Shown one piece after another: positions 1,807 to 62,759 of a stretch of DNA of 64,000 nucleotides. The stretch is taken from the NCBI RefSeq assembly GCF_018977255.1, contig NW_024704743.1, positions 558,001 through 622,000 of the forward strand. Direction: 5' to 3'. The translations under genes and the position numbers were made by a program. The notes under the pieces were generated by a model. The model was given only the letters and a program-made list of their open reading frames with translations, did no database searches and was not told the DNA's origin. How positions within the stretch are numbered: the stretch's first letter is position 1; every line of letters starts with the position of its first letter. This DNA comes from Callorhinchus milii (lineage: Eukaryota).

Positions 1807-3639
1807 CCCCCGTTGGCAGCTCTTTCGAAGAGCTGGCACAGGCACGATGGGCCGAATGGCCTCCTTCTGTGCTTTATTCTCACCTGTGAGATTCTTCCTT
1901 TGCAGGGTCCAGAGTCACGGTGAGAATAAAGTTTCGCAATGATACTTAATACCTGATCTTTCCATCTAAATTATTGAAAGTGTCAGCTATCCATTTTCAG
2001 ACTTTATTCCGGGGTTTATTTATGGATACAGTCGGGGAGAACGCAGAGCTGTTTTTTTTAAAAATTATCGACGTGAATAATTTATGGATTCATAAATGAG
2101 TTTGTAAAGCAATTAGCAAGCTCTTAAATCATACAATGAATTAATGATGAAATGAATTCTTTGCAGTAGCGAAATGCAGAACGCTGGCAAAACCGCACAG
2201 TTTTTCGGGAGCAAATATTTCTCCCTGTTTGACGTGAATTGTTCATATTAATATATTAATAGAACGCGACAGCGCATTGATAAGGCATCCCAAGGCACTC
2301 TCCTCCCCCCCCCTCTCTGTGTGGGTCCCTCTACTGTGAGTCTCTCTTTATGTGTCTGTCTCTGTCCCTCTCTCAGTCTCACTATCTCTCCTCTCGGAGC
2401 TGAAACCTCTTGTGTATTGTGTACAGACTGTTTCTCCCCCCCACCCCACACCCTCACCCCGCAGAGTCCTGTTAGCATAGGAACCCGGCTGTTAGTCGAT
2501 TGACGGGTCGCTTTCCAGGGATAATAATCCCTCCAAAAAACAACAATAATTTGGTCACTTAGTCCACGACTGTTTGTGGGACACTGCTGTGCGCAACAGT
2601 CTGCCGCATTTTGCCCTGAAACACACACAGTCACTGCACCTCACAGTATGTCGTTTGAGATGTCACAAAGACGCGATAAGGCGCTGTACCTAATGCCAGG
2701 ATTATTATTACAGAAACAGGCCATTCGGCCCGTCAAGTAATAAATTTACAGCGTGGAGGGTGGGAGGGCCCATTCGTCTATTCTGGTAGTTTCCCTCATG
2801 GAGTCTCACTTCAGTCTCATTTACTTCCTCATAGCAGGGAAAGAGGAATTTCTTTTTCAAGTTACTCCACACACACTCCTCTGTTTGCCCAGCAGTCAGT
2901 AGGAACCCGGTTGTTAGTGGATTGGCGGATCGCCTTTCTGGGGGTAATAATCCCCTCAAAATAAATTAAATCAAGAAAAACAAATGTAGTTACTCAATCC
3001 ATGACTGTTCGAGGGACCCTACTGTGCGCTATTCGCCCACAAAAGTACACAGTCAATTTACTTTACAGTACATTCTATGCAGCGCTTTGCATATCAGATG
3101 CAAGGATTATTATTAATAATATGTTAAAATATATTGGAAAAAGGTCAAAGATAGCATTTCAACAATGTAGTTCTTTCCTACGGCAGTGCACCGGAGTGTC
3201 AGCCTGGATTTACGAGCTCAAGTTCTGGTACACGACTCAAACCCTTTAATCTTCTAACCTCAGATTTGCCATCACTGCCAAACGGATAATTTGTTTTGGT
3301 CAGTTCGACACATGCTCTTAAGTGTATTCCATCTGACTGAGTCTTACACATACATCTGTGTCGACTACGCACTGGAATTTCTTTGTGTCTGAAATGGATT
3401 GCACACACACACGACATTCTCCCTCGAGGTTGTTTCCCTCATTCCAGAAAGTATTAGGCGCAGGTAGAGGAGAGCCGATGGTATGCATTGGGAGAGCGTT
3501 GGGAGTCCAACCAGCTGGAACTGCAAAGCTTCTCGCCATCCAGTGGCTGCCCAATAATCCTTCAATAATAATCCTTGCCTTTGATACAGCGCCTCATCAC
3601 ATCGTCGAGACGTCTCAAAGCGCTTCACAGAATGTACGT

Positions 3640-4008
3640 GGGGTCCTGTAGATCAGTGGTTAGAGCACTAGCCTCGCAAACGAGAGGACTTGGGTTTGAT
3701 TCCCAGCCGGGTTTCCTTACTCTACACGCCTCTGTTTAACTAGCAGTAAGTAGGACTAACAAGTAGGAACCCGGTTGTTAGTCGATTGGCGTATCGCTTT
3801 TCCGGGGGTAATAACCCCTTCAAGAAAAAATAATAATTTGGTCACTCAGTCCACGACTGTTTGCGGGGACGCTGCTGTGCGCAATTGGCTGCCGCGCTTC
3901 ACCCACAAAATACACAGTCACTCCACTTTACAGTATATTCTGTGAAGCGCTTTGGGACGTCTGAATGACGTGATGAGGCACTGCATCAAATGCAAGGATT
4001 ATTATTAT
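3640..4008 (+). mobile_element. tRNA-derived SINE (family A), near full length
   Basis: tRNA-like head (A/B boxes, ctcgc-CGC-gcgag arm), a Deu-domain-like gacgctgctgtgcgcaattggctgccgcg segment, an L2-like tail (gtgaagcgcttt...aaatgcaagg) and (ATT)n. Dozens of copies or fragments occur in the window. Confidence 0.9.
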
Positions 4009-5949
4009 TTTTATTATGTGGAGGGAGTGGACAGGGCGTTAGGATAGCAGGAGGTCGCAGAGGTATGGCGGGTAGATGTTGTAGAGGGAATTGAACCTTC
4101 GATTGAATTCAATCAGCCGAGCAATGGAATCCAGTCGATGATGGGGGTGACCGGCTTATAAGACTTGGGTGCAGGAGAGGACATGAGCTGCAGAGTCCCG
4201 GATGGCCTGCAGCTGGTTATAGGGAGCTTGAAACCGACAGTAGTTCTGTTAACGGAGAACGCCAAGCACATAGTTCAGCTGAAACCAAAGCCTCACTGCC
4301 TACAGGGCTTGTTTGCACAAGTGTTTTTGTTCAGAACTGAAGTATGAAATGCCCTCGTCGAGCTCCAGTCTCACCGAGGCGGCCTGGACCCCCCCCCCCC
4401 GCCCACCGTCTGCTTCCACTTTGCTCCAGAAGCCGAACGACAGCGAGCGGTGGGTCTCAGTTAAGACGCAGTTAAACTTTCCATCTCCGGCGGGTCGACC
4501 GGCAGAGGTAAACGTGCTCGGGCCAGGTTAGCGGCACCCCCTGGCTGGTGATGGCATCACACCAGCAGACCAAAGCCTCAGTGACGCGCAGAGAAAAGTC
4601 GTGAGAGCACGGCTTCAGCTGTGGCTCGTACAAAATCCTGCGGAGTTTATCCTCTCCCGCAGCAGCTCAGCATACCTGAACCCCCCCCCCACATACACAC
4701 ACACACACACACACACACAGGCCTTGGAAACGATCCCTGTTTAATCTTGCCTCGTACTTTCTCTATCTTTATATGCTCCGTTTCTACGGTGTCCACTACT
4801 CTCTCTCTCTCTCTGTCGCACCGTCGGTGGCTGAGCCTCGCTAGAACTCACCCCCAAATCCCCGTTCCTCCCTCCTTCACACCCCATCTTCAAAACCACA
4901 TCTCTCAGGTGACGGTTCATCAGCGTGCCTCCACATCCCTCCGCGCTTTATAATCATAATAACCCACTAAATTAGTACGGGAACAGTAACGTGTGGCACC
5001 ACCACGAAGCTCTTTGCTCGGTTTCTGTAAAGCGTAATGATCCTTTGGAGGTAAACGCAGCAGTCGGTTTTCACACAGCGATGCCCCATAAACAGCCGTG
5101 AGGTGAAGCCCTGACTTTATCTGGAGGACTGTTGGACTGTCTTCTTTCTAAAGCTCTTTGAGGCGTTCATACCACGCGGAAGACATTATATAAGTGCGTT
5201 ATAAGAAGACATTATTATACTTAAGTCTTAATTTTTAATGGTATGTTGTGTGCGATATCCAGTAGAATATAACGTGTTGTTTGGGCGTTATTTGGAGAGA
5301 GCAGGGGTGCTGTGCCGTACAGGTGCGAGCAAATGGTAGCGTTAGTTGTAAAGGAAGCCGAGATTTGCAGACCAATAAGTCTGGAGCCGGCCCGTGTGTA
5401 GTCTGCTTTATTAAAGGATAAATGGCTGCTTGTTCGATGCTCAACGGGCAGAGCAGAGCAGTGCAGAGGCCGGAGAAAGTTTCCTGCAAAAACTCCTGGT
5501 TCAAAGCCACGGCTCTGGCAAGGCGCCAGGAAACAGGAATAAATCCAGACAACAAAATGGAGGGAGAGTTGAGTCGAGCAGCAAGTCTGCTGAACACGTA
5601 GAGAATTAACGAGAGCGTAAAAAAGGGGAGGGGTGGCTGACTTATCTCCAGTTTGCTCATCTGGAAGCCTCAATTAACCAAATAGGAGCGAACTCACCCG
5701 CGAGCTGCTGACGTCAGCTTTTCCAAAGGTACTTCCTTTACAATGGTGCCTTGATTTGCAGCTCACCCCTCACGGGAAACGTGTTCAATTAACTCAAGAG
5801 GCCAAGCACCTCCTTTTTCTCCCAAATGACCCGTTTTAGCTTTATTTTTACGAATCACACTCAGATTTTCCAAGTAGTTTTTTTTTTAACCCCTCTAGCC
5901 CTGTTTTGACATTTGTCTTATACATCTATATATATATATTCGTTAAAAC

Positions 5950-23176: not shown

Positions 23177-23260
23177 GCTGAGACCTGGTTCAAGTAATCC
23201 AGGATAGGCTGTGTATCTCCTGGTTGGCCTATTCTCGATTACTTGCACTAGGGGGTAGTC
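23177..23260 (+). ncRNA. MIR26A1: pre-miR-26a hairpin (mature 5p 23189-23210; 3p arm ~23228-23249)
   Basis: Exact TTCAAGTAATCCAGGATAGGCT followed by the complementary arm CCTATTCTCGATTACTTGCACT. It lies in the intron after the ...TIHQ exon, the known host intron position in CTDSP genes. Confidence 0.97.
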
Positions 23261-23744
23261 ACCACACACACAAAACCAACTCACCTGCCCGAGACCGAAG
23301 AAAAACTTGTCGAGAGAGAGAGAGAGACACACGAGGGGAGAAATTATTGATCGGTGGAGCAGCAGGAGATCACCCACAAAACAAACAGGCAATTCGCTTT
23401 GCAGCGTATCCTGTGAAGCTCTTTTGTGGCGTCTCGAACAGGTGATAAGGCAGTGCATCAAGCACAAGGATTATTATTCAACCCTTCAAGCCCGCTATTC
23501 TGGTTTCTTCCCAAAGCACACCAGGCTTCAGAGTATCCAAACCAAGCCAAACCATCCCATCTACACGTGGAAAACTCCTGAGATATTTATTGGAACGGAT
23601 AGCGGCTTTGGAAAGGGGGTTTTGAATGAGACCCTGTCCGGCGCCTTGGGACATCCTCCTGAGGGGAAAGGCGCTGTACAAATGTAATTTGTTTGGGGAT
23701 GTTGTTCGCTCAGTCCCTCACCCGGGTGTCGTGTGCTTCCACAG

Positions 23745-23837
23745 GTCTACGTATTGAAAAGGCCGCATGTGGACGAGTTCCTGCAGAAGATGGGGAAGCT
23801 CTTTGAATGCGTTCTCTTCACCGCGAGTCTAGCCAAG
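23745..23837 (+). CDS. CTDSPL: CTDSPL exon 6 ([31 protein letters not shown])
   Basis: cacAG acceptor, AAG|GTAAGA donor, SCP-family peptide. Confidence 0.97.
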
Positions 23838-24000
23838 GTAAGACAGACGCCTTTGAAAGAAGCAAGACCCTTTTCCATGTCACGCTTGCAAAGTGCTGTT
23901 CGCCGTGGGTTCTGCTGCGTTTCGCCCACAAAATACACAGTCAATTCACTTTACAGTATATGTATACACTATAACAAGCACAAGGCTAATTCACTCCTGT

Positions 24001-24405
24001 GAAGTCCCGTAGCTCCGTGGGTGGAGCACTTGCCTCGCAAGCTAGAGGTCCCGGGTTCGATTCCCGGGCAGGGCGAAACCTTAGGACATAAGTAGGACAT
24101 TAGCAGTAAGTAGGAACCCAGTTGTTATCGATTGGCAGATTGCTTTTCTGGGGGTAATAATCCCTTCAATAAAAATAAATAAAAATTTTGGGGGTAGTAA
24201 ACCCTTCATCAATAAATAAAATATAATAATAATTTAGTCACTCAATCCACAGCTATTGTTGGACGCCGCTGTGCGCAATTGGCTGCCGCATTTCGCCCAC
24301 AAAATATTCTAAATATTCAACTCACTTCACAGTATGTTCTGCGAAGCGCTTTGAGACATCTCAACAACGTGATAAGGTACTATAATCAAACGCAAGGATT
24401 ATTAT
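24001..24405 (+). mobile_element. SINE family A copy
   Basis: Head to tail, with a small internal duplication. Confidence 0.9.
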
Positions 24406-26179
24406 CATCCCATTTATCATTCCGGTAAATCTCCTCCGCACCCTCTCCAAGGCCCTGCCATCCTTCCGAAAGTGTGGTGCCCAGAATTGGACACAGTACT
24501 CCAGCTGAGGCCTAATCAGTGACTTAATTATGAAGGTTTAACGTAACTTCGGCTCGCACAGCTCCTCTCTCTCCTGCCAATCCCCCCATCTCTTGCAGAA
24601 TTGGACAACGACACCAGCACGGAAACAACAACTTGATTTATGTAGCGCCCCCTGACACAGGGCTGCGCCCCAGAGCACTCGAAACAGGCCATCCGGCCCA
24701 TCACAACTTGTGCGCATCGGTCGACCAGTCTAATTGCATTCTCCTGCTAACCGCCACACCATATTATTTAACATTCCTCCTCTGTCGGCAACCATCTGAT
24801 TCCCTTTTGAAAGCATTTACAGACCCCGCCTGTACGGTAATTTATGGCAGAGAATTCCTACCACCCTCTGCGGATGAAATGTTGGTTCGTACCTGCCCTT
24901 TAATTATTTTTCTCCTCCATTCGTGCCCTCTCATTACTTACTGCCTCCCCGACTGGTGGAAATAGCTGCACACATTATTTCCAGATGCTTTACCTTTGAT
25001 CTGCAGGGTGACTGCCCCTGTTCCAGGCACTTTGGCAGCAGAGCGTGGTATGTCGATGTTGCCTCGGCTTTAGTTTTTGGCTATAAATTTAACAGAAAGT
25101 TGTGTGTTCGAGCCTCGTGCTCGCACTCAGATGGCAGCAGCGCAGCACTGAGACAACAACAACAAATTGCATTTACACCGCACCCACCTCTCACGTCAGG
25201 AGGACGTCCCAAGGCGCGGGACAGTCGGGGATTTGGACAAGAGCAGGGGTTTGGGATCAGGAGGGGTGGTGGCCAGGAGGAAAGGAGGGTGACCGAAAGC
25301 TCGGTCGAAGAGGAGGGTCTTGAGTCGGGCCTCGAAGGAAGCAAGAGAGGTGACATTGCTTCAGCTTTTCTAGGGGTAACAATCCAAAAAGACGAAAATA
25401 ATAATAATTTGGTCATTTCAGTCCACGACTGTTTGTGGGGACGCTGCTGTGCGCAATCGGCTGCCACGTTTCGCCCACAAATATACGGTCAATTCATTTT
25501 ACAGTATATTCTGTGAAGCGCTTTGAGACGTCTCGAACATGCGATAAGGGGCTGACTTATTAATAATCAAATGCAAAGATTATTATTTAAAATGAAATTT
25601 GGTGAGTGGAAAATTGTGCCTTCTTGGTTGTCAAGCGCCACACAAACGAAAGTTGTTGTTGAGTCTGACAAACGCCTGGATATGATTTAAGCATCGCTTC
25701 AGCTCTGGGTTCTGCTCCCCGTTCGCAAATCCCTCAAGCTTTGCTGTCCCCATTCTTGCCGTAAGTCGAGAAACATTCGATCAAGAAACGTTCATTTCAT
25801 TGGCCAACCAAAAAAGGTTAGCCGCCACTGGCAACAAACGGGAAATATTGAATCAAGAGAAAGTGGGAGCAGTTTAATCAAGCGGTAGCTCTCTCGCCTC
25901 TTGAGTCAGAAGGGTGTGGGTTCGAGCCCCGGGTGGGGACTTGGAATCACGTTGTCGAAGGCTCGGGGCCTACGTGTAGTGTCGCCCTGGTTTGCTCGTC
26001 GGACAGTGAAGTTGAAAATGGCTTGCGGGCCGGATGTGGCCCGCGGGCCGCCACTTGGACCACCTTAGTCTACCACAGAAATCCTGGGCTCAACTAGGGG
26101 GTTGCCCTGTACTTTGAAATGCGTTAATCTTTACCTTTTGTCTTTCTTCCTCCCCCCCCCCGGCCTCCCCTCTTAAAAG

Positions 26180-26365
26180 TACGCTGACCCTGTGGCTGAC
26201 CTGCTGGATCGCTGGGGCGTGTTCAGAGCGAGGCTCTTCAGAGAATCGTGCGTTTTCCACAGAGGGAACTACGTCAAGGATCTCAGTCGCTTAGGAAGGG
26301 ACTTGAGCACAGTTATCATTGTAGACAATTCCCCCGCGTCCTACATCTTCCACCCTGAAAATGCA
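26180..26365 (+). CDS. CTDSPL: CTDSPL exon 7 ([62 protein letters not shown])
   Basis: AG acceptor, GCA|GTGAGT donor. [15 protein letters not shown] fits the CTDSPL paralog. Confidence 0.97.
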
Positions 26366-26545
26366 GTGAGTATTTGCCTCAAATGGCCACAAATTATTGT
26401 GCTTGATGTTTTCTTTAACTCCCCCATCTCTCTCGCTATCCCTCCACCTCCTCCCTCACTCTATCCCTCATCTGCTTTAAAATCCTACGTTAACACTTAC
26501 CTTTGGGCCACCTTCCCATTTGAGACATCTCAGTGACGCGATAAG

Positions 26546-26851
26546 GCGTCCTGTAGCTCAGTGGTTAGAGGGCTCGACCCTCGAGCGAGAGACCTGGGTT
26601 CGATTCTCGGCAGGGTAAAACCATGGGCAAGTCTCTTTACTCCAAACGCCTGAAATATAATCCCTCGAAAAAAAATATAGTAATAAATTGATCGCTCAAT
26701 CCACGTGTTTGCGGGGACGCTGCTGTGCGCAATTGTCTGCCTCGTTTCGCTCACAAAATATATGATCAATTCACTTTGCAGTGTATCCTGCGAAGCGCTT
26801 TGAGACGTCTCGAAGATGTGATAAGGCGCCGGGTCAAATGCCAGGATTATT
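26546..26851 (+). mobile_element. SINE family A copy in the last CTDSPL intron
   Basis: Head to tail. Confidence 0.85.
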
Positions 26852-26952
26852 AGTAGTAGTAGTATTATTTTAAACGCTCTGCTTCTAAGATGACGTCGAG
26901 ATCCATGTGCACAGATGGCTTACGCATCGCGCTCTCCCTCTTTGAAACGCAG

Positions 26953-27078
26953 GTGCCTGTGCAATCCTGGTTCGACGACATGTCAGACACCGAGTTGCAG
27001 GATCTGATCCCGTTCTTTGAAGGACTGAGTAAAGAAGACGATGTTTACAGTATGCTGCAACATCTCCGCAACAGGTAG
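26953..27078 (+). CDS. CTDSPL: CTDSPL last coding exon ([41 protein letters not shown])
   Basis: cgcAG acceptor and TAG stop. The C-terminus closely resembles mammalian CTDSPL ([35 protein letters not shown]). Confidence 0.97.
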
Positions 27079-30760: not shown

Positions 30761-31518
30761 CTGTCTGTCGGATGATGTTGATCAGAGCCATTTGCAGAGT
30801 TAATGCCCAGTCACTTCACCCCTAGGAAAGGGCAGGAAGCTAACACAGCTGAGGAGGTGGGGGGTGGTTTCTAGGGAAACGTTAATGGAGCTTCTATAAT
30901 TGCCCTCTAGTTCCCGAGTCTTCCGATCACTGCACGAGAGGTTGGAGGACCCTTCGGTCCATTTGATCTCATCCTTCCAAGAATACTCCATCCTGCTGTC
31001 TTCCCAACACAGCACTCACTGAGCTGTTCCTCAGAGAAACCGGCAACATCCCACAGTCAGGCCTTCCCCCAACACACAGCAAACAGCTAACAGAGGGGGT
31101 GTGGGGTGGTGGGGGGTCTGGGGGTGGGTGCTGGGGGCTGGAAGTGGTTTACAGATCGTACTGATCAGTAGCCTTGTCAGTGCAAGAGCAAATCGATGCT
31201 CTAAATCCAGAAGTCGCTGGGATCAGGCAGCAGGTGAGGCAGCATCTATGGAGAGAGGAAAATGAGTGGACATTTCCAGTCGATGACCTTGCGTCGATGC
31301 TGTTGATCAGAGGCGTTTTCTCCATTAATTTATTCCGGGTGTAACTAACCCGCCAACGTGGAACAGTGTGAGTTGATCACACGTCCCTGGTTGGGAGTGG
31401 AGCTTGGCAATAGACAGAGAGAGAGAGAGATTATCTCTTAACAAGGGAGGGAATAGGTGGCTTTTGGGGAATAATTGCGGTTGAAGCCGGGCAGAGGCAG
31501 CTCAGCGTCTCGGTGTTT

Positions 31519-31830
31519 TGTAAGGTTAATTAAACTGGTGACCCTGAGGTGAAGCATGAACTGGCACAAATTTCCTTTTAGATCGTGAAACCGTAATAAA
31601 AGATTAGTAAAGCAACGCGTATCAAAGTCGCTAAGTTTCGTCAAATCAAACTAAAGCTTACAATGGGTTCGTAAAGTTCACCGCAATGATCGGGTCGGTA
31701 TAGTGGCTTTCATGTCACTTTCCAGAAGTAAAACAAGTCCACGAGTCTTTGGGATGTCTCTTTAGTCAATCCGAGCAATCCAGAGTTGTCCTCCAGTGGG
31801 ACAAACTAACAGCATCAGCCCCTCATCACC
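31519..31830 (-). repeat. 3' LTR (approximate)
   Basis: Ends ...aaccttaCA on the - strand at 31519. Shares colinear blocks (ggtgaccctg, attagt.aag.aacgc, gtttc.tca.at, agtggcttt, tccacg) with the copy at 33411. The far boundary is uncertain. Confidence 0.7.
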
Positions 31831-32259
31831 ATCAGGATCTTCACCACTCCCTTTCACCTCAGCCACTACATTCATCTTTTCGATTCATTTTAGCGTTCGG
31901 TTTAAGAATCGTAGAAATGTTCATGTTTCACATCGGATTTCTAGATCCAACAATGACAGCAACAGCAAATCATCATTAATAATATTATGATTTCAATTTA
32001 ATTAAATGCTAGCAAGGTTTTACGTACATAAATCGTACTACCACAACAATTTAAAGTATGACTTCAGTGGGAGTTCCCTTTTTTATTATGATGTACACAC
32101 ACACCTTTTCTTTCAACATATCATTCTAAAATTCCCAATGAATGCATCTGTACTTGATCTGTATACACATCGTTTTGATTAAATACTGGAACAAAGCAAA
32201 TGATATATAAAATAAATCATAATATCTACCAATAATATTTGGATAATTGACACTAATGT

Positions 32260-33200
32260 TTATAGACATGCCGGTTGCAAACACCGGCCCCAATATTCCC
32301 CGTTTGCTTCTTTATTAACTTCCTTATGGTCACTTTTACAGGTCTTTGGTAAGTGTCTGGTGTCTCTGCATTTACCGCAGTCTATCCCAGTCGGGACTAA
32401 TATGTCCAGACTTCCCACATCGCTAACACACTAGTGTTTTTTTTATATATCGGATTTGAGCTTCATCCATCTACCTTTGCCCTCGTCATTAAGTAGTCCA
32501 GCATTTTTTTGGGCCATAATTGCTCTCTTCCCTGACTATCTGCTGCCTGACAAACTTTAATCTCTTCTTTTTTTTTCGCTTTCCTCCTGCTCTTGTTCCG
32601 TAGCCTCCCTGAGCTCTCGGTGAAATTGAATGGCCGTATCTCTCTCATCGCAGGTATCGTGAGTGAGTGAGTGGCCAACCACGAAACCTCATTAAAATGC
32701 CCGTAAGCATCCTGCTTTCCATCACATTTCGGCAATGGACTGTGCGTGGCCCGTAGTTGAATTGCGTCGTAAGGTATCCGTACTTTAGCCTTTTCTGCCT
32801 CAATCTTGTAGGGCACATTAGAAAAGTCCGATTATCCTGATTGTTTTCTTGCTGCTCTGTCATCAACATCCCTTTAGTCATTTTTAGTCGACTTGAGCTC
32901 CATTCGAGTTTCTTCTAACTCTCGTTCTCTCTGTACTCTCCCGAATTTCTCTCGAAATTCGTTCTTTTTCCAGAAAACCCCTGAACTCTTCTTGAGAACT
33001 GACGAGTTTCTCTTCCAACTCCTTTTTTTCTCCGAGCTCAATACCCGCTCGTTCTGTTGAGAACTGGCTTCCCGTTTAATTCCCCGCTTCCAGAGCTCGG
33101 AGGCACGTCGATCGAAATCCGCAAGGACTTAAATCCATGCAGCTTTAACTTGGTTAGCTTTCACTACTTTTGTTCCAGTTCTCGACGCACTCCAACCGCG
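32260..33200 (-). pseudogene. Decayed gag-like coding remnant with two zinc knuckles
   Basis: Across frameshifts and stops it reads ..KELEEKLVSSQEEFRGFLEKE..RERELEETRMELK..RIPYDAIQLRATHSPLP.., then C*RCGKSGHISPDW (32428-32387) and CGKCRDTRHLPKTC (32379-32338). Confidence 0.75.
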
Positions 33201-33391
33201 CCTGTGTTCGAGGTTGTTCCTTTTCTTTACGATCAAAGAGTTAATGAGGAGTGGGAGGATGAGAAAACAGTGCAACCGGTTCACACACCAACCGGCAAAA
33301 CCCCGACTCACTAAACGCAACTGGTCAATTACACAAATACTTCCATTTCTAAACGGCGTTAACCGATTCCTCCGACTTCGACACAACGGGG

Positions 33392-33409
33392 TTCCCTGTT
33401 CGGGAGCCA
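33392..33409 (-). promoter_or_regulatory. Primer binding site, tRNA-Lys(UUU)-type
   Basis: The - strand reads TGGCTCCCGAACAGGGAA versus canonical TGGCGCCCGAACAGGGAC (16/18), directly after the LTR end. Confidence 0.85.
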
Positions 33410-33410
33410 A

Positions 33411-33730
33411 TCGTAAAGGTTGCGGTGACCCTGTGAAGGTGACGTAGGAACCCACGCAGATTCCTCAATCGATCGATACTCATTAATTGCAAATTAGTCA
33501 AGAAACGCACGTCAGAGTTGGACGTTTCATCAGATTAACGCTTGACAACAGGTCAGTGAGGTTCGCTGCCGTGAATTGATCAGAACAAATCAAGTGGCTT
33601 TGACGAGGAATCGGTTTGTTAATCCACGTTGAGATTGGAGTGTATCCCTCTCTCCTCGAAAATTATCTATGGTTAGGAACTCGCTGATCCTTGCAAAGAC
33701 ATGTAGCGTTCAGCTCCATGGAAACACCTT
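33411..33730 (-). repeat. 5' LTR (approximate)
   Basis: Abuts the PBS and is colinear with the 31519 copy. The far boundary is uncertain. Confidence 0.7.
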
Positions 33731-36016
33731 TTGTTCAGTCGCCCTGTTAGCAACATCCAGCAGTCGTTAGGCTTCCCCTCCCTCGCCTCGATCACGATTC
33801 CAGGAGTTTTCTTCGAAACAAGCCCGAAAAAGTCCCCATTTTGTAGCCGACAACAAGGTCTTATCAACGATGATGTTTGAAACCCTTAACGTGTTCTCCG
33901 CACGCGCTTTCGCTGTTTCCCGGCTGCCGTTTCTCCGAAGAAAAATTCCACGAGCCTTTGCCATTTTTCTTCGGCCAACTCAGACCGTCCCGAGTTCTGG
34001 GTTGGCTTCCGGTTTGGAGCAGAAAACGGAGAGAATTGAAGCCGCTAACGGAGGGGGAAAGGCTTCTCCGTGCATTGGTTGTGACCTTTCATTGGAAAAG
34101 CCCGACTTCCGACACCCGCCTCTCCCTCCTTTCTGGACCCTCAGCATCTTCTACGTTCACTACCACTAACTTGGGGTGAAGCCATCTGTCGCTCTCTCGC
34201 TCTCTCTCTCTCTGACCAATTCTCCTTGCGCTATTTTATTGTGATCTGAATCCAGCCCTTGTGTGCGCGCGAGTGTGAACTCCCTCATCTTCTCCCTCCC
34301 CGCCCCCCAACCCCCCCTTAACTCTTTGCCGTGGAGTGAATATATAAGATAGCGTTCCTCAAACGCGGCGACTGTGGTGTTAGTCCTGCAGCGGGAATTC
34401 AGTCGGGCGTGTACGGTGATTTGGAATTGAACCCGGAATCCTAGTTGGACGGGTTTTAGGGTCTGGGTGAGGATGGTGGGCTCTACAGCAACCTTAATGC
34501 CCTCCCCTGTTAGAGACGTGTCACCCACTAAACCATTGAACGTTTCAGTGCTATTCTCTCCCACCGCGATTGCCGTTAAAACCTCCGGTTCATTACGGAG
34601 GGCTTGGGCCGCTACCTTGGGTATCTCAAGCCAACGGATGGGAGGGGCGGGGAGGGAGAGAAGGTGAGGAAGAGACATCGACGTCCATTTGGCTTGATCA
34701 CCGGGGAACACATCACCACGCTTAAGAGCCAGGCAGCCGAGGGTATGGTTTTGTGTTGCCTGCTATTGAGTGCGCACACACTCTCTCTCGAACCGTGTTT
34801 GTTGCCCGTGCAATGGGAGCCGATAGATCCATCATGTTAAGTCTCACGGGCAGGTTGGGCTGTGGGAGTGGGGGGGGGGGGGTCAACACTCGCCCCTCCC
34901 GTCTCCGAGCAGGCGGTGGGGAGAAGAATATTCCCAGAGTATCCTCCCATTCCCGTTGCCGTAGTCTCCTTTTCTACGGAAGCAAAACCCGTATCGGTCT
35001 TGTACATATCAAGTTTTTCTAACGGAATAGTAACCGGCTTTGAGATGGTGCGTGGAGCGAGTTACCGATGCGTGCATTGTTCCTTTCGGGTGGGGAGTTA
35101 GCGGGGAGGGGGTGGGGGGGAGAGGGCGAGGGGGAAAATTGGCGTTTGCTGTTAAATTACACTCACCAAACGGAGTTTGGCCACTGGCTGTTCAAAACTG
35201 TTCCTCACCACTGTGCCTGTGTTAACACGTACCGCCGTATGCTACGGATTCTGGGCAATAATTTCGGAGGACGGACAGATCAATGAGCTCCCGCCTGCCC
35301 CGCCGAATTGTCCCCTCCGCGTATTAGATGTGGCGGTTGGGGGGGTGGGGGGGAGGGAGAAAAAATCGGCGGGGTGGGGGGTAGGGGAATGACGTGATTT
35401 TTTTTTTAAACGACGATCGGAATAAAAAGGTTCAACTGCATAGGATCGCTTCAGGTTTCGCAGCGGTGCGTGTGCGTGTGTGTTGGCAGTTGCTGAGGAT
35501 TTAATGTGTTCAAGTAGCCTCCACATCGTCTCTTATTCCCCCACCCCCCACCCCCCTCTCTCTCTCTCTCTCTCCCACCCCCCACACGCACACGCGCGCA
35601 CACAACACGCACGCGCCCGGCCGCGCGCGCGCACACGAGCAGAGCGTTTGGCAGTTACTGAGTGGGATTTTACGTAGCGTGTGTCGCATATTTTTTTAAC
35701 ACAAAGAAGCACACCACAACAGTACTCGCTCGCTCAAACACTAAGCATATTCCGAGCTTTTTTTTGGCGTTACGAGACGCGAGTGTCGGGACTGCCCTTT
35801 AATTCTCTTTGTTCGCTTGAGCCTCAACTTGCTCTTTTTTTTAAAGATTAAAGGAGGAGAGCTAATTATTATCTGTATTTTAATACTATTTTTGTGTGCT
35901 TTTTCCTGTTTAAAAAAACAAAACAAAAAAAAGCGCAGTTGTTCGACGGTCACGACGATCAAAGCTCCTGAAATATTCCGACTGGTTTCGCGGAGACGGT
36001 GGCGGGGAGGGGGGGA

Positions 36017-36052
<36 letters not shown>

Positions 36053-37121
36053 CTTTAATGCCGATATATACGCACTGATGTGCGTCTCTGTTGCGTACGG
36101 TTGTTGTGCAAGTCGTCTAAATCAAAGGGGAATAATAAAAGGCTGGATTCTCAGTCCGGTTAGCTAGGCATTACCTTTTCCTTTCCCAGGGCGTCGATCA
36201 TGTACAACAGCTTCACAATCGTGTTTAGCTTTTCTTTCGATCTTTAAAGTTGTTAAGCTTTTCGCTGATCAAATGAACCACTTGCCTTAAAAAGAAAATC
36301 CAGTAAATGAATGTCACCTACAGTTGTTTTTCCCCCCACACCCCCACCCCCCCCACACTCGCGAGTCGTACGGCTGATTAACCAGTTGACATCCTCGGAC
36401 ACGCAACCTTCACACGTGTTCGCGCGCGCGCACACACGACCGCTCAATCGGAGAGAGAGAGATTGCTTCAGGAGCGAAGCGAATCCCGGTCGGGATAACG
36501 TGGACGTGAAAAAAATTGTCATTCCACAATATTGTTTAATTCCCCGGAGCTCTTGACTGTTCTCACTGGTACCTGTTAAATCGATCTGTTCTGTGCCTCT
36601 GATTCCAAAGGTGCTCGGATTTTTGCCTTGTAAATGATTGCTTTGGGGACGGGCGGGCGGGCGGGCGGGGGCCTGGGAGGAGGAGGAGGAGGAGGGGGGG
36701 GGAGAAGGGAAGGGGTGGGTTGGGGGGAGAAATAGGAGGAAATGAAGCAAGAAAAGTAACTATGCAAAACAAGTGGTTAATTCTGGGTTCCTTTTAAAAT
36801 AAAGTTGGGTTACGGTCTTCGGTGTTTCACCCGCGCAAACTTTTCTCCTTAACCGTTTATTCTGAAATTGTGCAACGGGAACAGCAAACAAATGGTCGGA
36901 CTGGGAAGAGGGGAGCGGAGCGAGAGAGAGAGAGAGAGAGAGAGCGCGACGGGGAGAGGATGGATTGCTTGTTTTTCATAGTTATATGGTTCCAGAGTTG
37001 GCGACACTTTTATACAATGATAAGCAGCAATACTTGAGAACACTATAAAGTTTTAAGAGGGAAAGAAACAGAAGAGGTTGTTACTGTCAGTTACTGAATA
37101 ATCTGTTTCTTTACTTTCACA

Positions 37122-38798: not shown

Positions 38799-39975
38799 CC
38801 TGTAGCTCAGGGGTTAGACCCCTCACCCCCCACCCCACAGCCCCTGTAGCTCAGGGGTTAGACCCCTCACCCCCCACCCCACAGCCCCTGTAGCTCAGGG
38901 GTTAGACCCCTCCCCACACCCCACAGCCCCTGTAGCTCAGGGGTTAGACCCCTCCCCACACCCCACAGCCCCTGTAGCTCAGGGGTTAGACCCCTCCCCC
39001 CCACCCCACAGCCCCTGTAGCTCAGGGGTTAGACCCCTCCCCCCCACCCCACAGCCCCTGTAGCTCAGGGGTTAGACCCCTCCCCCCACCCCACAGCCCT
39101 GTAGCTCAGGGGTTAGACCCCTCACCCCCCCACCCCACAGCCCCTGTAGCTCAGGGGTTAGACCCCCCCTCGCACCCCACAGCCCCTGTAGCTCAGGGGT
39201 TAGACCCCTCCCCCCACCCCACAGCCCCTGTAGCTCAGGGGTTAGACCCCTCCCCCCCACCCCACAGCCCCTGTAGCTCAGGGGTTAGACCCCTCCCCCC
39301 CACCCCACAGCCCCTGTAGCTCAGGGGTTAGACCCCTCGCCCCCCACCCCACAGCCCCTGTAGCTCAGGGGTTAGACCCCTCCCTCCACCCCACAGCCCC
39401 TGTAGCTCAGGGGTTAGACCCCTCCTCGCACCCCACCCCACAGCCCCTGTAGCTCAGGGGTTAGACCCCTCCCCCCACCCCACAGCCCCTGTAGCTCAGG
39501 GGTTAGACCCCCCCTCACACCCCACAGCCCCTGTAGCTCAGGGGTTAGACCCCCCCCCACCCCACAGCCCCTGTAGCTCAGGGGTTAGACCCCTCCCCCC
39601 ACCCCACAGCCCCTGTAGCTCAGGGGTTAGACCCCTCCCCCCACCCCACAGCCCCTGTAGCTCAGGGGTTAGACCCCTCGCCCCCCACCCCACAGCCCCT
39701 GTAGCTCAGGGGTTAGACCCCTCGCCCCCCCACCCCCACAGCCCCTGTAGCTCAGGGGTTAGACCCCTCGCCCCCACCCCACAGCCCCTGTAGCTCAGGG
39801 GTTAGACCCCTCCCCCCACCCCACAGCCCCTGTAGCTCAGGGGTTAGACCCCTCCCCTCGCACCCCACAGCCCCTGTAGCTCAGGGGTTAGACCCCCCCT
39901 CGCACCCACAGCCCCTGTAGCTCAGGGGTTAGACCCCTCGCCCCCACCCCACAGCCCCTGTAGCTCAGGGGTTAG
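38799..39975 (+). repeat. ~43-bp minisatellite (cctgtagctcaggggttagacccctccccccaccccacagcc), ~27 copies
   Basis: Direct tandem repeats. The last unit continues as a SINE. Confidence 0.95.
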
Positions 39976-40415
39976 ACTCCTCGCCTCACAAGCGAGAGAA
40001 CCCGGGTTCGCTTCCCGGCAGAGTGAAACCTCTGGCAAAGTTTCTTCGCTCCCCCCCCCCCCCCCCCCACACACACGCCACCGTTTCCTTACGCCGCAAG
40101 TCCTGAGGTGCCGCCCTGCGTTGGAGAGCGCGACACAAGAGCGAGTCTTTATTGTTTGCCCAGTCGTTATTAACCCGGTCGTTAGTCGATTTGCGGGTCG
40201 CTTCTCCTCGGGGGTTAATAATACCTTAAAAAAAATAATAATTTCGTCGCTCAAACCCGCGGCTGTTTGCGGGGACGTCGCTGTGCGCAATCGGCTGCAA
40301 TCGTGTTTCCCTCGCAAAGCGTACGGTCAAATACAGCTCATAGTATATCCCGGGAAGAACTCCGAGGCGTCTGGAAGATCAGATAAGGCGCGACAGCAAA
40401 GGCAAAGATTATTAT
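39957..40415 (+). mobile_element. SINE family A copy at the end of the 43-bp array
   Basis: Head continuous with the array unit. Confidence 0.85.
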
Positions 40416-46647: not shown

Positions 46648-47001
46648 CGTCTCAAAGCGCTTCACACGGGACGCGCGGCAAAGTGTGGTGACTGTGTAAT
46701 TTGCGGGCCAAACGCGGGCAGCCAATCGCCCAGAGCAGTGTCTCCCCCCCCCACCCCCAACCCCCCCGGAATCAAGCGACCAAATTATTATTATTACTTT
46801 TTGGGTGGGATTATTAACCCCTCGAAAGCGATCCCCCAATAGACTAACAGCCGGGTTCCTACTGACTGCCGGTAAACAGAGGTGTGTGTGTGTGTGTGTG
46901 GAGTGAGGAAACTCGCCCAATGTTTCGGTCCCCCGCCCGGGCATCGTACCCGGGGTCCTCTCCCTCGCGAGGCGAGCGCTCCAACCGCTGGGCTACGGGA
47001 C
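46648..47001 (-). mobile_element. SINE family A copy
   Basis: Reverse-complement match to the other copies. Confidence 0.85.
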
Positions 47002-56720: not shown

Positions 56721-57087
56721 GGAGTACTGTAGCTCAGCGGTTAGAGCCCGCGCCTCGCAAGCGAGAGGAACCGGGTTTGATTCCCGGTCGGGACAAGCGC
56801 ACACACACACACACACACACACACGCGTGTCAGTTTACCCAGCGGTAAGTAGGAACCCGGTGGTTAATCTATTGGCGGATCACTCTCCGGGGGGTAATAA
56901 CCCCTTCAAAAAAAGAATAGTGTTTTAGTCACTCTATCCGCCGCTGTTCGTGGGACGCTGCTGTGGCGCAATTGGCCGCTGTGTTTCGCCCACAAAATAA
57001 CACCCTTTGCGGTATATTCTGCGAAGCGCTTCGAGACGTCTCAGTGACGTGAGAAGGCGCAGTGGCAAATGCAAGGATTATTATTAT
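56721..57087 (+). mobile_element. SINE family A copy
   Basis: Head to (ATT)n tail. Confidence 0.9.
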
Positions 57088-59912: not shown

Positions 59913-60422
59913 GTGCGTGTGTGTTCATGTCTGTCTCCAGATCGCCCCGGTGGCTCCCACCTTTTGGAACACCATCCCACGGTCCATTCGCCGAGCCCCT
60001 CCACCCCCACTCTCGCCTCCTTCAAAGCCCACCACCCTCCTCTTCAGCCACCCTCCTTCTACCCACCCCCCCATCCTCCCTGCCCTCCGTCCCCTCCTGA
60101 TCCCAACCGCCCCCCATTCCCCACCCCACCCCCCCCCAGCTTTGATCCAAATCCCTGACTATCCAGCGCCTTGGAATGTCCTCCCGACGCAAAAGTTGCC
60201 GTGTACGTGTCACGTGTTGCTGTTTCGTGAAGCGTTCGAGTTGTTAAACCGTAAACCTCACATAACTCTTTAGGCGCTGTATCAAACGCAATAATAATAA
60301 TAATAATGAAGACGTTCTTTTTTTCTTCCTTGTGCTTGGGCTAAAACCATTCCCAACCCCCTCCCTCTCCCACCTTCCCCCCCTTCCCCCCCGACCCCAA
60401 TCCCATCCCATCCCCAATCCAG

Positions 60423-60602
60423 GGAGGAACGGGTCGCCAAGGAGGGCAGGTGGCGGAACCCCCGGTCAGGCTCTTTCAGGTCCGGGGTACGGATGAGATG
60501 AATACCAAAGCCACCGAGGTGCCCACCCGCGCTTCCTCCCTCAACTCCAACGACGTCTTCGTGCTCAAGACAGAGCAGACCACCTACCTGTGGTGCGGGA
60601 AG
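60423..60602 (+). CDS. VILL: Villin-like exon, G5 (GGTGRQGG...[34 protein letters not shown]...YLWCGK), GC donor
   Basis: ccAG acceptor. Frame and homology require the AAG|GCAAGT donor. Confidence 0.93.
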
Positions 60603-61165
60603 GCAAGTATCGATGTCCCCTCCGAGCCGGGCTCAGTCGCTGGCACCATCGTTGCCTCTGAGTCAGAAGGTTGTGGAGTCCCAGCGGTCAGAGCCCTCGC
60701 CTCAAAAGCGAGAGGACCCGGGTTTAATTCCAGGGCAAGGGAGGAGGGTGAAATGTTGGCCAAAGTTTCCTTACTCCACACACACACACACACGCATATC
60801 GCCCACAAAATGCACAGTCACTACACTTTACAGCGTGTCCTGCGAAGCACTTTGAGATGTCTGGAAGACGCGATGAGGCGCCGGGTCAAACCCAAGGATC
60901 ATTATTATAATTATTGTTGTTGTTGTCGGTTCAAGCCCCACGTCGGGACTTTGAGCTCACAGTCCAGGCTGACGTTCTCGTCCAGTGGGGTGGGGGGAGG
61001 AGGGGGGGCGGGGAGGTTGGGGTTAGGGTTAGGAGGGTGGGGGGAGCATTGTCGGAGTCACAGTCCTCGGGATGTTGAAGCCGACTGTGCATGTTCTGCT
61101 GGACAGTCTTCCCCACGGTGAATAGTCCTTCAATCTCCTCAACCCCCCATCCTCCGTTTCCTCAG

Positions 61166-61311
61166 GGATGCAGTGGAGACGAGAGAGAAATGGCCAAGTC
61201 GGTGTCCAACAACCTGTCCAAACGAGAGAAACAGACCATTCTGGAGGGGAAGGAGCCGGCCGAGTTTTGGCTCTCGCTGGGAGGAAAAGCACCTTACGCC
61301 AACGACAAAAG
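61166..61311 (+). CDS. VILL: Villin-like exon, G5 ([11 protein letters not shown]...[22 protein letters not shown])
   Basis: AG/GT boundaries, [10 protein letters not shown] and [10 protein letters not shown] motifs. Phase 2 out. Confidence 0.95.
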
Positions 61312-61915
61312 GTACCGGCTGATTGCGGCGGCGGCAACAACAACAACAACCACCACCACCACCACCACCACTTGCATTTCGGTGACCCTCAGCGCGCGCT
61401 GGACGAGCAGGGTCTTCAGGTGCGATCTGAAGATGGCCACGTTGGAGGGAATGGGACAGGGAGCTCCGGAGCGACTAAAAGCACAGCCGTCGATGGTGGA
61501 GCGGAGGTGGTGGTGGGGGGAGGGGGGGGGTGGGAAACGAGAGAGCTGCAGAGCCGAGCGAGCGAAGGGGGTCGTGGACTTGCGTGGATGTGGGTGTGGG
61601 CTTGGAAGGGTTGACGGAACAAGGTAGAACAGGTCCACGGGTTGCAAAGGGTCCATTCTCCTCTCCCTCGCTATTGGGTACAGTTATCCCTTCGGATAGT
61701 GCAGCGGTTAGAACCCTCGCCTCGCGAGCGAGAGGACTTGGGTTCGACAGCTCACTGTCGATAAATATCTTTCATATTTATAGGCCTAAGAAGTCGGGAG
61801 GACATCCCAAGGCGATGGGATGCCTCAGCGAGCTGACAGCGTGCTGCGGGGAGTGCCAGAATTCTTACTATCATTATTTATCATTAATTCTTATTAATAA
61901 TACTGTAACGCTTAG

Positions 61916-62060
61916 GTTTCAGGAAGAGGACTGTGCGGTGGAGCCCCGCCTGTTTGAGTGCTCCAACCAGACCGGGCGCTTCATCATGAGCGAGGTCAAT
62001 GATTTCACCCAGGAGGACCTCGATGAGGAGGATATCATGCTGCTGGACACGTGGACCGAG
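61916..62060 (+). CDS. VILL: Villin-like exon, G6 (RFQEEDCAVEPRLFECSNQTGRFIMSEVNDFTQEDLDEEDIMLLDTWTE)
   Basis: AG/GT boundaries, PRLFECSN.TGRF motif. Confidence 0.95.
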
Positions 62061-62759
62061 GTATTGGTTGGCTTACACACGCCCCGCATCAGGCTCCGAG
62101 ACAACCCTCCTCTGGTTCTTTTGCCAATTATCTTCCATCTGTGTCCCCTGCTTCACCAACCCATCGGCCGGAGGAACGGTTCCTCCCCTATCTACTCTGA
62201 TCATTTAGTAAATCTTTCCTTAACCTTCTCCACTCTTGTGGAGAACGTCTCTCGTCTCTTCTCTCGTCTTCTCCGTGCCTTGGCTCGTCTTGGCTGGTAC
62301 CCAGTGAGGGCTCAAGCCCGGGCTTGTCAGATGTCAAACGGCCAGCTGGTGACTAGGCCCCAAGGTGACATGTTTGGCAACGGAATGTGGGTATCGAGTC
62401 CCCCCCCACCCCACCCCGCCTCTCTGTGACGGTCTCTAGTCCCCGGTTCCTGAGCCAGGAGGGGCCGCAGTGTCCCAGGGCACTCACGGCTGATGGCCGC
62501 CCAGCCCCGGCCCCGGCTCATCCATCAGCAGGACCTGGAAGGGCCGACCAGTCACTGGGGTCAGGGAATCCTCCCCCTCGGCTCCTGTTAACCCCACAGC
62601 CAAAGACCTAACTAACGGGGAGGGTGTCCGAGATCGACAAGCATTGGGAAAGCTTGGCCAGACAGCGCTCCCTCCCCCCCCCCCCACACCCCCCAAGCCT
62701 TGGGTCTCACCAACCTGCGCCTAATACTCTCCGGAATTAGGTAAGCAGAATGCAGTAAT

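Follow-up and report, generated by a model that had tools for sequence, protein, structure and literature searches.

A dead, internally deleted provirus with LTRs of two subfamilies in Callorhinchus milii, from an old retrovirus-derived family probably near SnRV and CmiERV lineage I

Background

Among the closest described systems is CmiERV lineage I (Han 2015, PMC4422223). One stretch fetched from the Callorhinchus milii genome, L076, reads by eye as the published CmiERV scaffold 2 sequence through LTR, PBS, gag and pol, and its RT is 56% identical to that of the family described below, the two falling in the same weakly supported group. As far as the available parts of that description go, both have an E/K/R-rich gag start, a CCHC motif, and a tether plus RNase H. 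CmiERV lineage I differs in its LTRs, in having one knuckle, and in its PBS, which is TGGCGTAGTCGGCAGG instead of a Lys site. We take the TGGCGTAGTCGGCAGG site to be that of tRNA-Ser. The published copy has an env, and lineage I is younger, with LTR distances of 0.018-0.033 against 0.10-0.22 in the present family. Han's two supplement files, in which line breaks could mask a match, contain the PBS and LTR-end words of the present family 0 times. Identity of the present family with the CmiERV lineage I family was considered and rejected, because LTR and PBS differ and pol identity is not high.

Further points of reference are SnRV and the clade Huo ERVs, for which we used the accessible sections of Xu et al. 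2018 (PMC6001957). Among 1.84 billion representatives, the RTs nearest to the present family belong to frog, coelacanth and turtle Pol proteins (51-57%, at most 68-78% on partial overlaps), which are compared by Pol alone and carry labels such as "NYNRIN-like", "ribonuclease H" and "Gypsy retrotransposon integrase-like protein 1"; SnRV stands at 54%. The available portion of Chong et al. 2014 (PMC4299795) states that unclassified ERVs related to SnRV and Ovex1 may have a GPY/F motif and gag zinc fingers, both of which occur in the present family. SnRV itself is not its sister in any tree, and the present family has two or three knuckles and gave no env match. Foamy-like ERVs, as covered by the parts of PMC5512871 and PMC5210030 at hand, share with it a Lys PBS and a 4-nt TSD, and a foamy virus is the best PDB match to its RT. 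CmiFLERV, described there from pol only, reportedly clusters with a Xenopus element, as does the RT of the present family. Fish foamy-like Gag is given in the same sections as being without Cys-His boxes, whereas 2-3 knuckle repeats occur in 8 of 8 copies of the present family examined.

Lokiretroviruses and Odin (Wang and Han 2021, PMC7947760; 2022, PMC9040795; both in part) also have a tether and a second RNase H, but the present family has CCHC knuckles and an RT outside the Loki clade. Its coiled-coil-like gag start resembles that of zebrafish BHIKHARI, as shown in the accessible part of PMC12067270. Finally, ectopic recombination and gene conversion are known for primate ERVs, and the discordant-LTR proviruses that they produce keep their TSD and have a mixed LTR history (available sections of PMC8781664). 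The copy described here has both properties, but unlike the cases presented there it combines LTRs of clearly separate subfamilies with a non-colinear internal junction.

Extent and remnants of the element

The window, that is, the whole stretch of 64,000 nucleotides that was analysed (contig NW_024704743.1, positions 558,001-622,000), contains at 31519-34011 on the - strand a dead retrovirus remnant of ~2.5 kb, which belongs to an old multi-copy ERV family. A first-pass annotation of this DNA had described a provirus that has lost pol but keeps a tRNA-Lys(UUU) PBS and two nucleocapsid knuckles. This description holds, and the absent pol is present in fuller family copies. The extent that it gave does not: the 5' boundary had been set at 33730 and the size at ~2.2 kb, whereas the 5' LTR starts at 34011, where it aligns without gaps to the starts of family LTRs, and with AAAC at both ends the element measures 2493 bp. 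We therefore define the element as 31519-34011, because the 5' LTR starts at 34011 and AAAC stands outside both LTR ends, as the 5' (34012-34015, -) and 3' (31515-31518, -) copies of the target-site duplication (TSD). Such a 4-bp TSD is the norm in the family, being exact in 8 of 12 other two-ended elements and carrying one mismatch in the remaining 4 (by eye); AAAC makes up 0.5% of the 4-mers of the window. Family LTRs are ~580-750 bp long, start with TGTA and have TG...CA ends. The start of the window 5' LTR is mutated and that of the 3' LTR is missing, while the second repeat copy on the - strand does terminate in CA at 31519, as first noted.

The PBS lies exactly where it had been claimed, at 33392-33409 (-). 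The word found there, TGGCTCCCGAACAGGGAA, stands alone, as no other site of the window comes within 3 mismatches of the 18-mer (0.03 matches expected; a match arose in 3 of 100 shuffles), and it agrees at 16 of 18 positions with the end of the host tRNA-Lys(UUU). The exact 18-mer is carried by family copy L064. Its 15-mer core has 16 matches genome-wide against 0 for the control, and in 3 of the 10 loci fetched with the 15-mer, host tRNA-Lys(ttt) genes terminate in the complement of the core. Downstream, 33270-33391 (-) is a leader with ~70% identity to the leaders of family copies.

The gag remnants, too, are as first reported, although more disordered. At 32877-33262 (-) lies a frameshifted E/K/R-rich remnant of the gag start, with frames at 32877-33128 that are 41-42% E/K/R; it would form a coiled coil by its composition. 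A conserved gag-middle remnant follows at 32672-32850 (-) and includes the P-Y-x-x-x-Q-L-R...L-P segment, PYDAIQLRATHSPLP, at 32730-32774 (-), read as PYDAIQLR...LP. It has 8 other matches in the genome at 50-69% amino-acid identity; at the DNA level, identity to family copies is 69-89%. From its position it may be the capsid start. A Pfam profile search of the window frames found no gag family, and a PDB search with the family gag middle gave no useful match. The next piece, 32500-32662 (-), aligns to the gag start of reference copies, in which it sits 500-700 bp upstream of the conserved gag middle, and is thus out of order. Both nucleocapsid knuckles are present. The first (32387-32428, -) is broken, with an internal stop and the last Cys absent; the second (32338-32379, -), in a different frame, is intact, and no other CX2CX4HX4C occurs in any of the window's six frames. 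Pfam scores the broken knuckle only, at E=0.007, below its cut-off. The family 3' internal region (31788-32283, -), which ends in a purine-rich stretch, is joined straight to the gag end, with pro and pol deleted. The longest ATG-open frame of the element is 78 aa. It codes for no protein and most likely does nothing; it is a genomic fossil.

The two LTRs and the origin of the window copy

The 5' LTR (33411-34011, -; 601 bp) matches the subfamily A solo LTRs L029 and L031 at 76-77% over nearly its full length (~600 bp), and by LTR alignment and tree it is a subfamily A LTR shifted to G+C and CpG. The 3' LTR (31519-31787, -; 269 bp) belongs to subfamily B and is without ~16 bp of the start and ~300 bp of the middle. 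Both gaps are common to the fragment L028, with ~90% identity across them. L028 itself (1483-2584) is a 440-bp fragment, partly tandem-duplicated, with SINEs at its borders. A replicating short-LTR subfamily was considered but found no support, since a single one of 14 other matches extends across these gaps.

That the two ends are related to each other was confirmed by the alignment that the first-pass annotation had named as a check: the local score is 334, whereas 500 shuffles averaged 158 and did not exceed 232, and the best of 298 other stretches of the window reached 215. The pair is 66% identical over 389 ungapped columns and 63% over the shared terminal 215 bp (K2P 0.52 over 198 columns), and an exact-seed repeat finder run on the window did not list it. 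Each LTR is nearer to a different subfamily and has that subfamily's diagnostic indel block. The LTR tree separates the 5' LTR (A) from the 3' LTR (B) with 100/99 support, and a tree with both in one clade is rejected by the AU test (p-AU 0.002), whereas one clade for the true LTR pair of copy L021 is not rejected (p=0.33). The truncated L023_5 was left out of the LTR tree before this test, and L022, a near-duplicate of L021, was counted once. Because the two LTRs come from different subfamilies and both show an AT-to-GC excess, their distance is no clock, and the earlier deduction of a very old insertion from their low identity fails. More generally, an intact TSD combined with mixed-subfamily LTRs and a regional GC-biased speed-up can make an LTR-based age several-fold too high.

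Our preferred reading, to which we give a probability of roughly two in three, is that the provirus is dead and internally deleted, belongs to an old ERV family related to SnRV and CmiERV lineage I, and had one half replaced later. The family would have spread by reverse transcription from a tRNA-Lys primer, its integrase inserting the product with a 4-bp stagger, and the window site would be a single insertion. Ectopic recombination or gene conversion may then have swapped one half of the provirus from a copy of the other subfamily, a process expected to leave the TSD intact. An internal deletion and neutral decay presumably shaped the remainder, and GC-biased, faster substitution near the chromosome end would have lengthened both LTR branches afterwards. 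Neither a donor locus nor a conversion breakpoint was identified among the sequences compared, and leader and gag identities sort unclearly into A and B.

The different LTR subfamilies and the non-colinear junction near 32665 could also mean that two neighbouring insertions of the same orientation, one A-type and one B-type, were brought together by a deletion that cut through gag, and L028, the close relative of the 3' part, has the same derived gaps. AAAC would then flank the element by chance. This is unlikely, given an exact repeat of the family length at ends that were set independently by alignment, and the ~0.5% share of AAAC among 4-mers. Alternatively, one integration could have taken one end from each of two viral DNAs, A and B, whose inner ends were ligated by repair. 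A single event of this kind would account at once for the TSD, for LTRs of two subfamilies and for the internal junction, and the 3' LTR end is intact, yet the same picture is expected under later conversion. No second case was found among elements with both LTRs, as L021, L023, L037, L062 and L064 have like LTRs, and the mechanism in vivo is itself conjectural; we consider such an origin improbable.

Base composition and genomic surroundings

Both window LTRs stand on long branches (0.22-0.24 vs a median of 0.085), made up mostly of A/T-to-G/C changes. Weak-to-strong and strong-to-weak changes per triplet number 24.8 and 2.9 in the 5' LTR and 19.0 and 4.8 in the 3' LTR, while the ratio of the two is 0.4-1.9 in 17 other LTRs. 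The excess extends over the whole element (ratios of 2.2-5.6) and is highest in the 5' LTR (3.4-5.6). It is also seen in SINE copies, whose ratio is 1.87 in the window vs 0.72 elsewhere; in the adjacent 10 kb outside the window, nearer the scaffold end, it is 1.01, from 8 hits only. The contig is 125.6 Mb long, with the window at 0.56-0.62 Mb counted from its start, and in the whale shark substitution rate and GC climb towards chromosome ends, according to the available part of PMC13100897. GC-biased gene conversion may be behind the AT-to-GC shift.

The first-pass annotation had called the element antisense to CTDSPL. The opposite orientation is correct, but the last coding exon of the gene ends at ~27078, 4.4 kb before the element. 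The 3' part of this CTDSPL-like gene occupies 23178-27078 (+), with exons near 23742-23873, 26174-26374 and 26953-27078, a stop codon near 27078, and a mir-26 precursor at 23178-23258 in an intron. The first two of these are Pfam NIF exons (+), the larger of which is best matched by human CTDSPL (128 bits vs 120 for SCP1); the last exon is non-discriminating. Beyond the element, gelsolin repeats lie at 60345-62426. It is conceivable that the CpG-rich 5' LTR, which stands between CTDSPL and the villin-like gene, was recruited as a promoter or enhancer, or that the element is part of an extended CTDSPL 3' UTR: the observed/expected CpG ratio of 1.17 at 33001-34000 is among the highest of the window, and the weak-to-strong excess peaks in this LTR. 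The same excess, however, covers the entire element and the SINEs across the window, and the 5' LTR evolved faster, not slower, than other copies, so that we regard co-option as a slim prospect.

Three minor observations concern the same surroundings. Positions 33001-37000, from the 5' LTR outwards, are CpG-rich (observed/expected 0.75-1.17) and could hold a promoter. Low-score ARAGORN and Rfam tRNA calls at 24004-24075, 26547-26618, 39955-40025, 46927-47001 and 56724-56795 resemble the heads of tRNA-derived SINEs rather than genes. The stretch occurs in 14 of 15 rows of a sequencing-run listing; none of these 14 is recorded as RNA, and 10 of them are RNA by guess only.

Family copies in the genome

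A DNA search of the genome returned at least 47 other family matches (40 of 159 candidates scored), and the survey was based on 54 fetched stretches of 10 kb each. The copies fall into three LTR subfamilies, namely A (the type of the window 5' LTR), B (that of the window 3' LTR) and C, and every copy seen is decayed. A search for fuller copies with pol, proposed at the outset, succeeded: L037, L061, L062 and L064 have the order gag-pro-RT-tether-RNase H-integrase, in contrast to the window copy without pol. Their tether is RNase H-like and is followed by a second RNase H, and the integrase has a GPY tail. For example, the dual RNase H of L062 is matched by PF17919/PF17917 and then by PF00075. 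Copies L021 and L022 have gag and no pol. In read-throughs of L021, L023, L035, L037 and L062, whose 3' region is too decayed for a divergent env to be recognised, Pfam matched no env, and none of the 16 PF00429 (env) matches in the genome lies within a fetched family copy. A fusion-glycoprotein env of the Mononegavirales-like type likewise had no Pfam match in the family, although Pfam also missed one in the downstream frames of the Loki-like stretches L074 and L075.

Two knuckle repeats are present in 5 of 5 A/B-like copies, the window copy included, and three in 3 of 3 subfamily C copies; the third is broken in every copy seen (L062 4221-4500, L068 and L136). Orthoretroviral nucleocapsids have 1-2 knuckles (PMC8278194), and a literature search for three-knuckle nucleocapsids gave retrotransposon and LINE cases only, so three in a retroviral nucleocapsid would be unusual. 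The nucleocapsid frame of the family is 82% identical to a predicted protein of Callorhinchus milii in UniRef.

Individual copies have peculiarities of their own. In L064, the protease and the first half of RT (3385-4210) are inverted within the provirus, right after the exact 18-nt Lys PBS, where the tRNA match runs 4 bases past the 18-mer. L021 (C33) and L022 (C3) are nearly the same old element including flanks, either a segmental duplication or an assembly duplicate.

Placement of the family

The class of the window copy is deduced through relatives that resemble it at 70-85% in LTR, leader and gag. Subfamily C supplied the longest pieces of RT (L064); from subfamily A, L061 has short pieces only, 64% identical to L064 over 50 aa. 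In a 28-row tree (of 154 rows), the N-terminal half of RT falls on the canonical-retrovirus side with 100/99 support and joins the rows of frog, coelacanth and CmiERV-I in a weak group (83/79). The C-terminal half, in a separate 27-row tree, goes to the same group on the canonical side with support of 99; in this tree and in a quick version of the RT tree, the family groups with CmiERV-I at 94. The class I, ERV-L and gypsy labels in these trees are our assumption, assigned by motifs, and outgroup rows were labelled by look. The SnRV and Loki labels are anchored to RTs printed in the PMC7947760 supplement and that of CmiERV-I to the PMC4422223 supplement. The references include no foamy RT, as neither a foamy nor a CmiFLERV RT was present among 150 representatives or the readable supplement alignments. 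RT identity is 54-57% to the group of SnRV, frog, coelacanth and CmiERV-I, 37-41% to Loki and ~30% to gypsy-like rows; of the labelled references, those of SnRV type score highest, but the family does not form one clade with SnRV. The best PDB matches to RT are foamy (92 bits), MLV (56) and Ty3 (52). The family would accordingly appear to be a canonical-side, retrovirus-derived element near the SnRV-like CmiERV lineage I, with AU tests of its RT placement that reject none of the alternatives, being borderline for Loki (p=0.055) and Ty3/gypsy (0.052), and higher for class I (0.25) and ERV-L (0.22).

That the family is instead a lokiretrovirus or a Ty3/gypsy retrotransposon could be argued from the tether and RNase H shared with Loki (PMC7947760, available part), from integrase PDB scores that are nearly equal for foamy (94 bits) and Ty3 (92), from the lack of env, and from these two AU values. 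The RT identities point the other way, and the RT trees put the family outside both groups with support of 99-100, which makes this assignment very unlikely. A lokiretrovirus, our first suspicion, was rejected on the RT, which lies outside the Loki clade. For Ty3/gypsy, the trees place RT outside Metaviridae, and the family has a tether and a second RNase H vs a single RNase H. ERV3/ERV4 elements, which have a 5-bp TSD, no zinc finger and no GPF/Y motif according to Table 1 of PMC4299795 (seen in part), were rejected for a family with a 4-bp TSD, knuckles and a GPY integrase tail. TSD length, knuckles and GPY agree with class I, but in the best trees RT is outside the class I clade.

The family falls in a region of the retroviral tree where the branching among SnRV, foamy-like viruses and class I is poorly resolved. 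A protein search with its RNase H gave one hit and then none, and a metagenome scan gave 8 distant loci at 30-36%. The first-pass suggestion of an unannotated lineage stands in so far as the family is distinct from that of CmiERV lineage I; it is, however, a relative of CmiERV-I, and the predicted protein is already in UniRef. A literature search over open papers, with Repbase and Dfam outside its scope, found no description of the present family. We hold it possible, although rather doubtful, that the family is an undescribed deep-branching lineage of cartilaginous fish, combining an RT on the SnRV/CmiERV-I side with a Lys(UUU) primer, a 4-bp TSD, GPY, no env and 2-3 knuckles, of which the window copy may join the ends of two viral DNAs. 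In any case, retroviruses of cartilaginous fish are thinly sampled, and they gain with it an old lineage for which gag, LTR and PBS are described beyond pol alone.

Age of the family

The family is old on LTR-pair evidence that is independent of the mismatch between the window LTRs. LTR pairs of L021, L023, L037, L062 and L064 have K2P distances of 0.10-0.22 (BLAST columns, possibly low), compared with 0.018 for the CmiERV-I copy L076 and 0.033 for CmiERV1 (PMC4422223, available part). By LTR distance, it is roughly 3 to 12 times older than CmiERV-I. The rate assumed by Han, 2.2e-10 per site per year, would turn these distances into 230-490 million years, but the same part of that paper cautions on the rate, and we do not rely on this age. 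That the window copy is a single provirus whose LTRs were identical at insertion and diverged by ~35% through great age alone is hardly credible, despite the TSD and the K2P of 0.52, since the diagnostic indel blocks of the two LTRs are those of different subfamilies, the one-clade tree fails where the true pair of L021 passes, and the other pairs of the family stop at 0.22.

Other retroelements in the genome

Several other retroelements were met in this genome. Long open pol frames in L075 (G000:C548, 3684-7571) and L074 (G000:C466, 896-7495) are nearly letter-identical to the lamprey elements Loki-Lca and Loki-Pma in the PMC7947760 supplement, and further Loki-like hits lie on C364, C556, C771, C909 and C1182. 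In the available part of that study, Callorhinchus is unmarked as a Loki host. The contigs C466 and C548 measure 56-62 kb, and their Loki-like frames would be due either to foreign contigs in the assembly or to horizontal transfer. Dozens of small contigs contain long open RT frames that are ~30% identical to the query, with near-equal scores, and could represent a young family or foreign DNA. Lastly, L113/L141 (C5:11.76 Mb), L140, L142 and L143 represent at least one further ERV family that has the same Lys(UUU) PBS and different LTR ends; its RT is 58% identical to that of the present family, and L113 has one knuckle.
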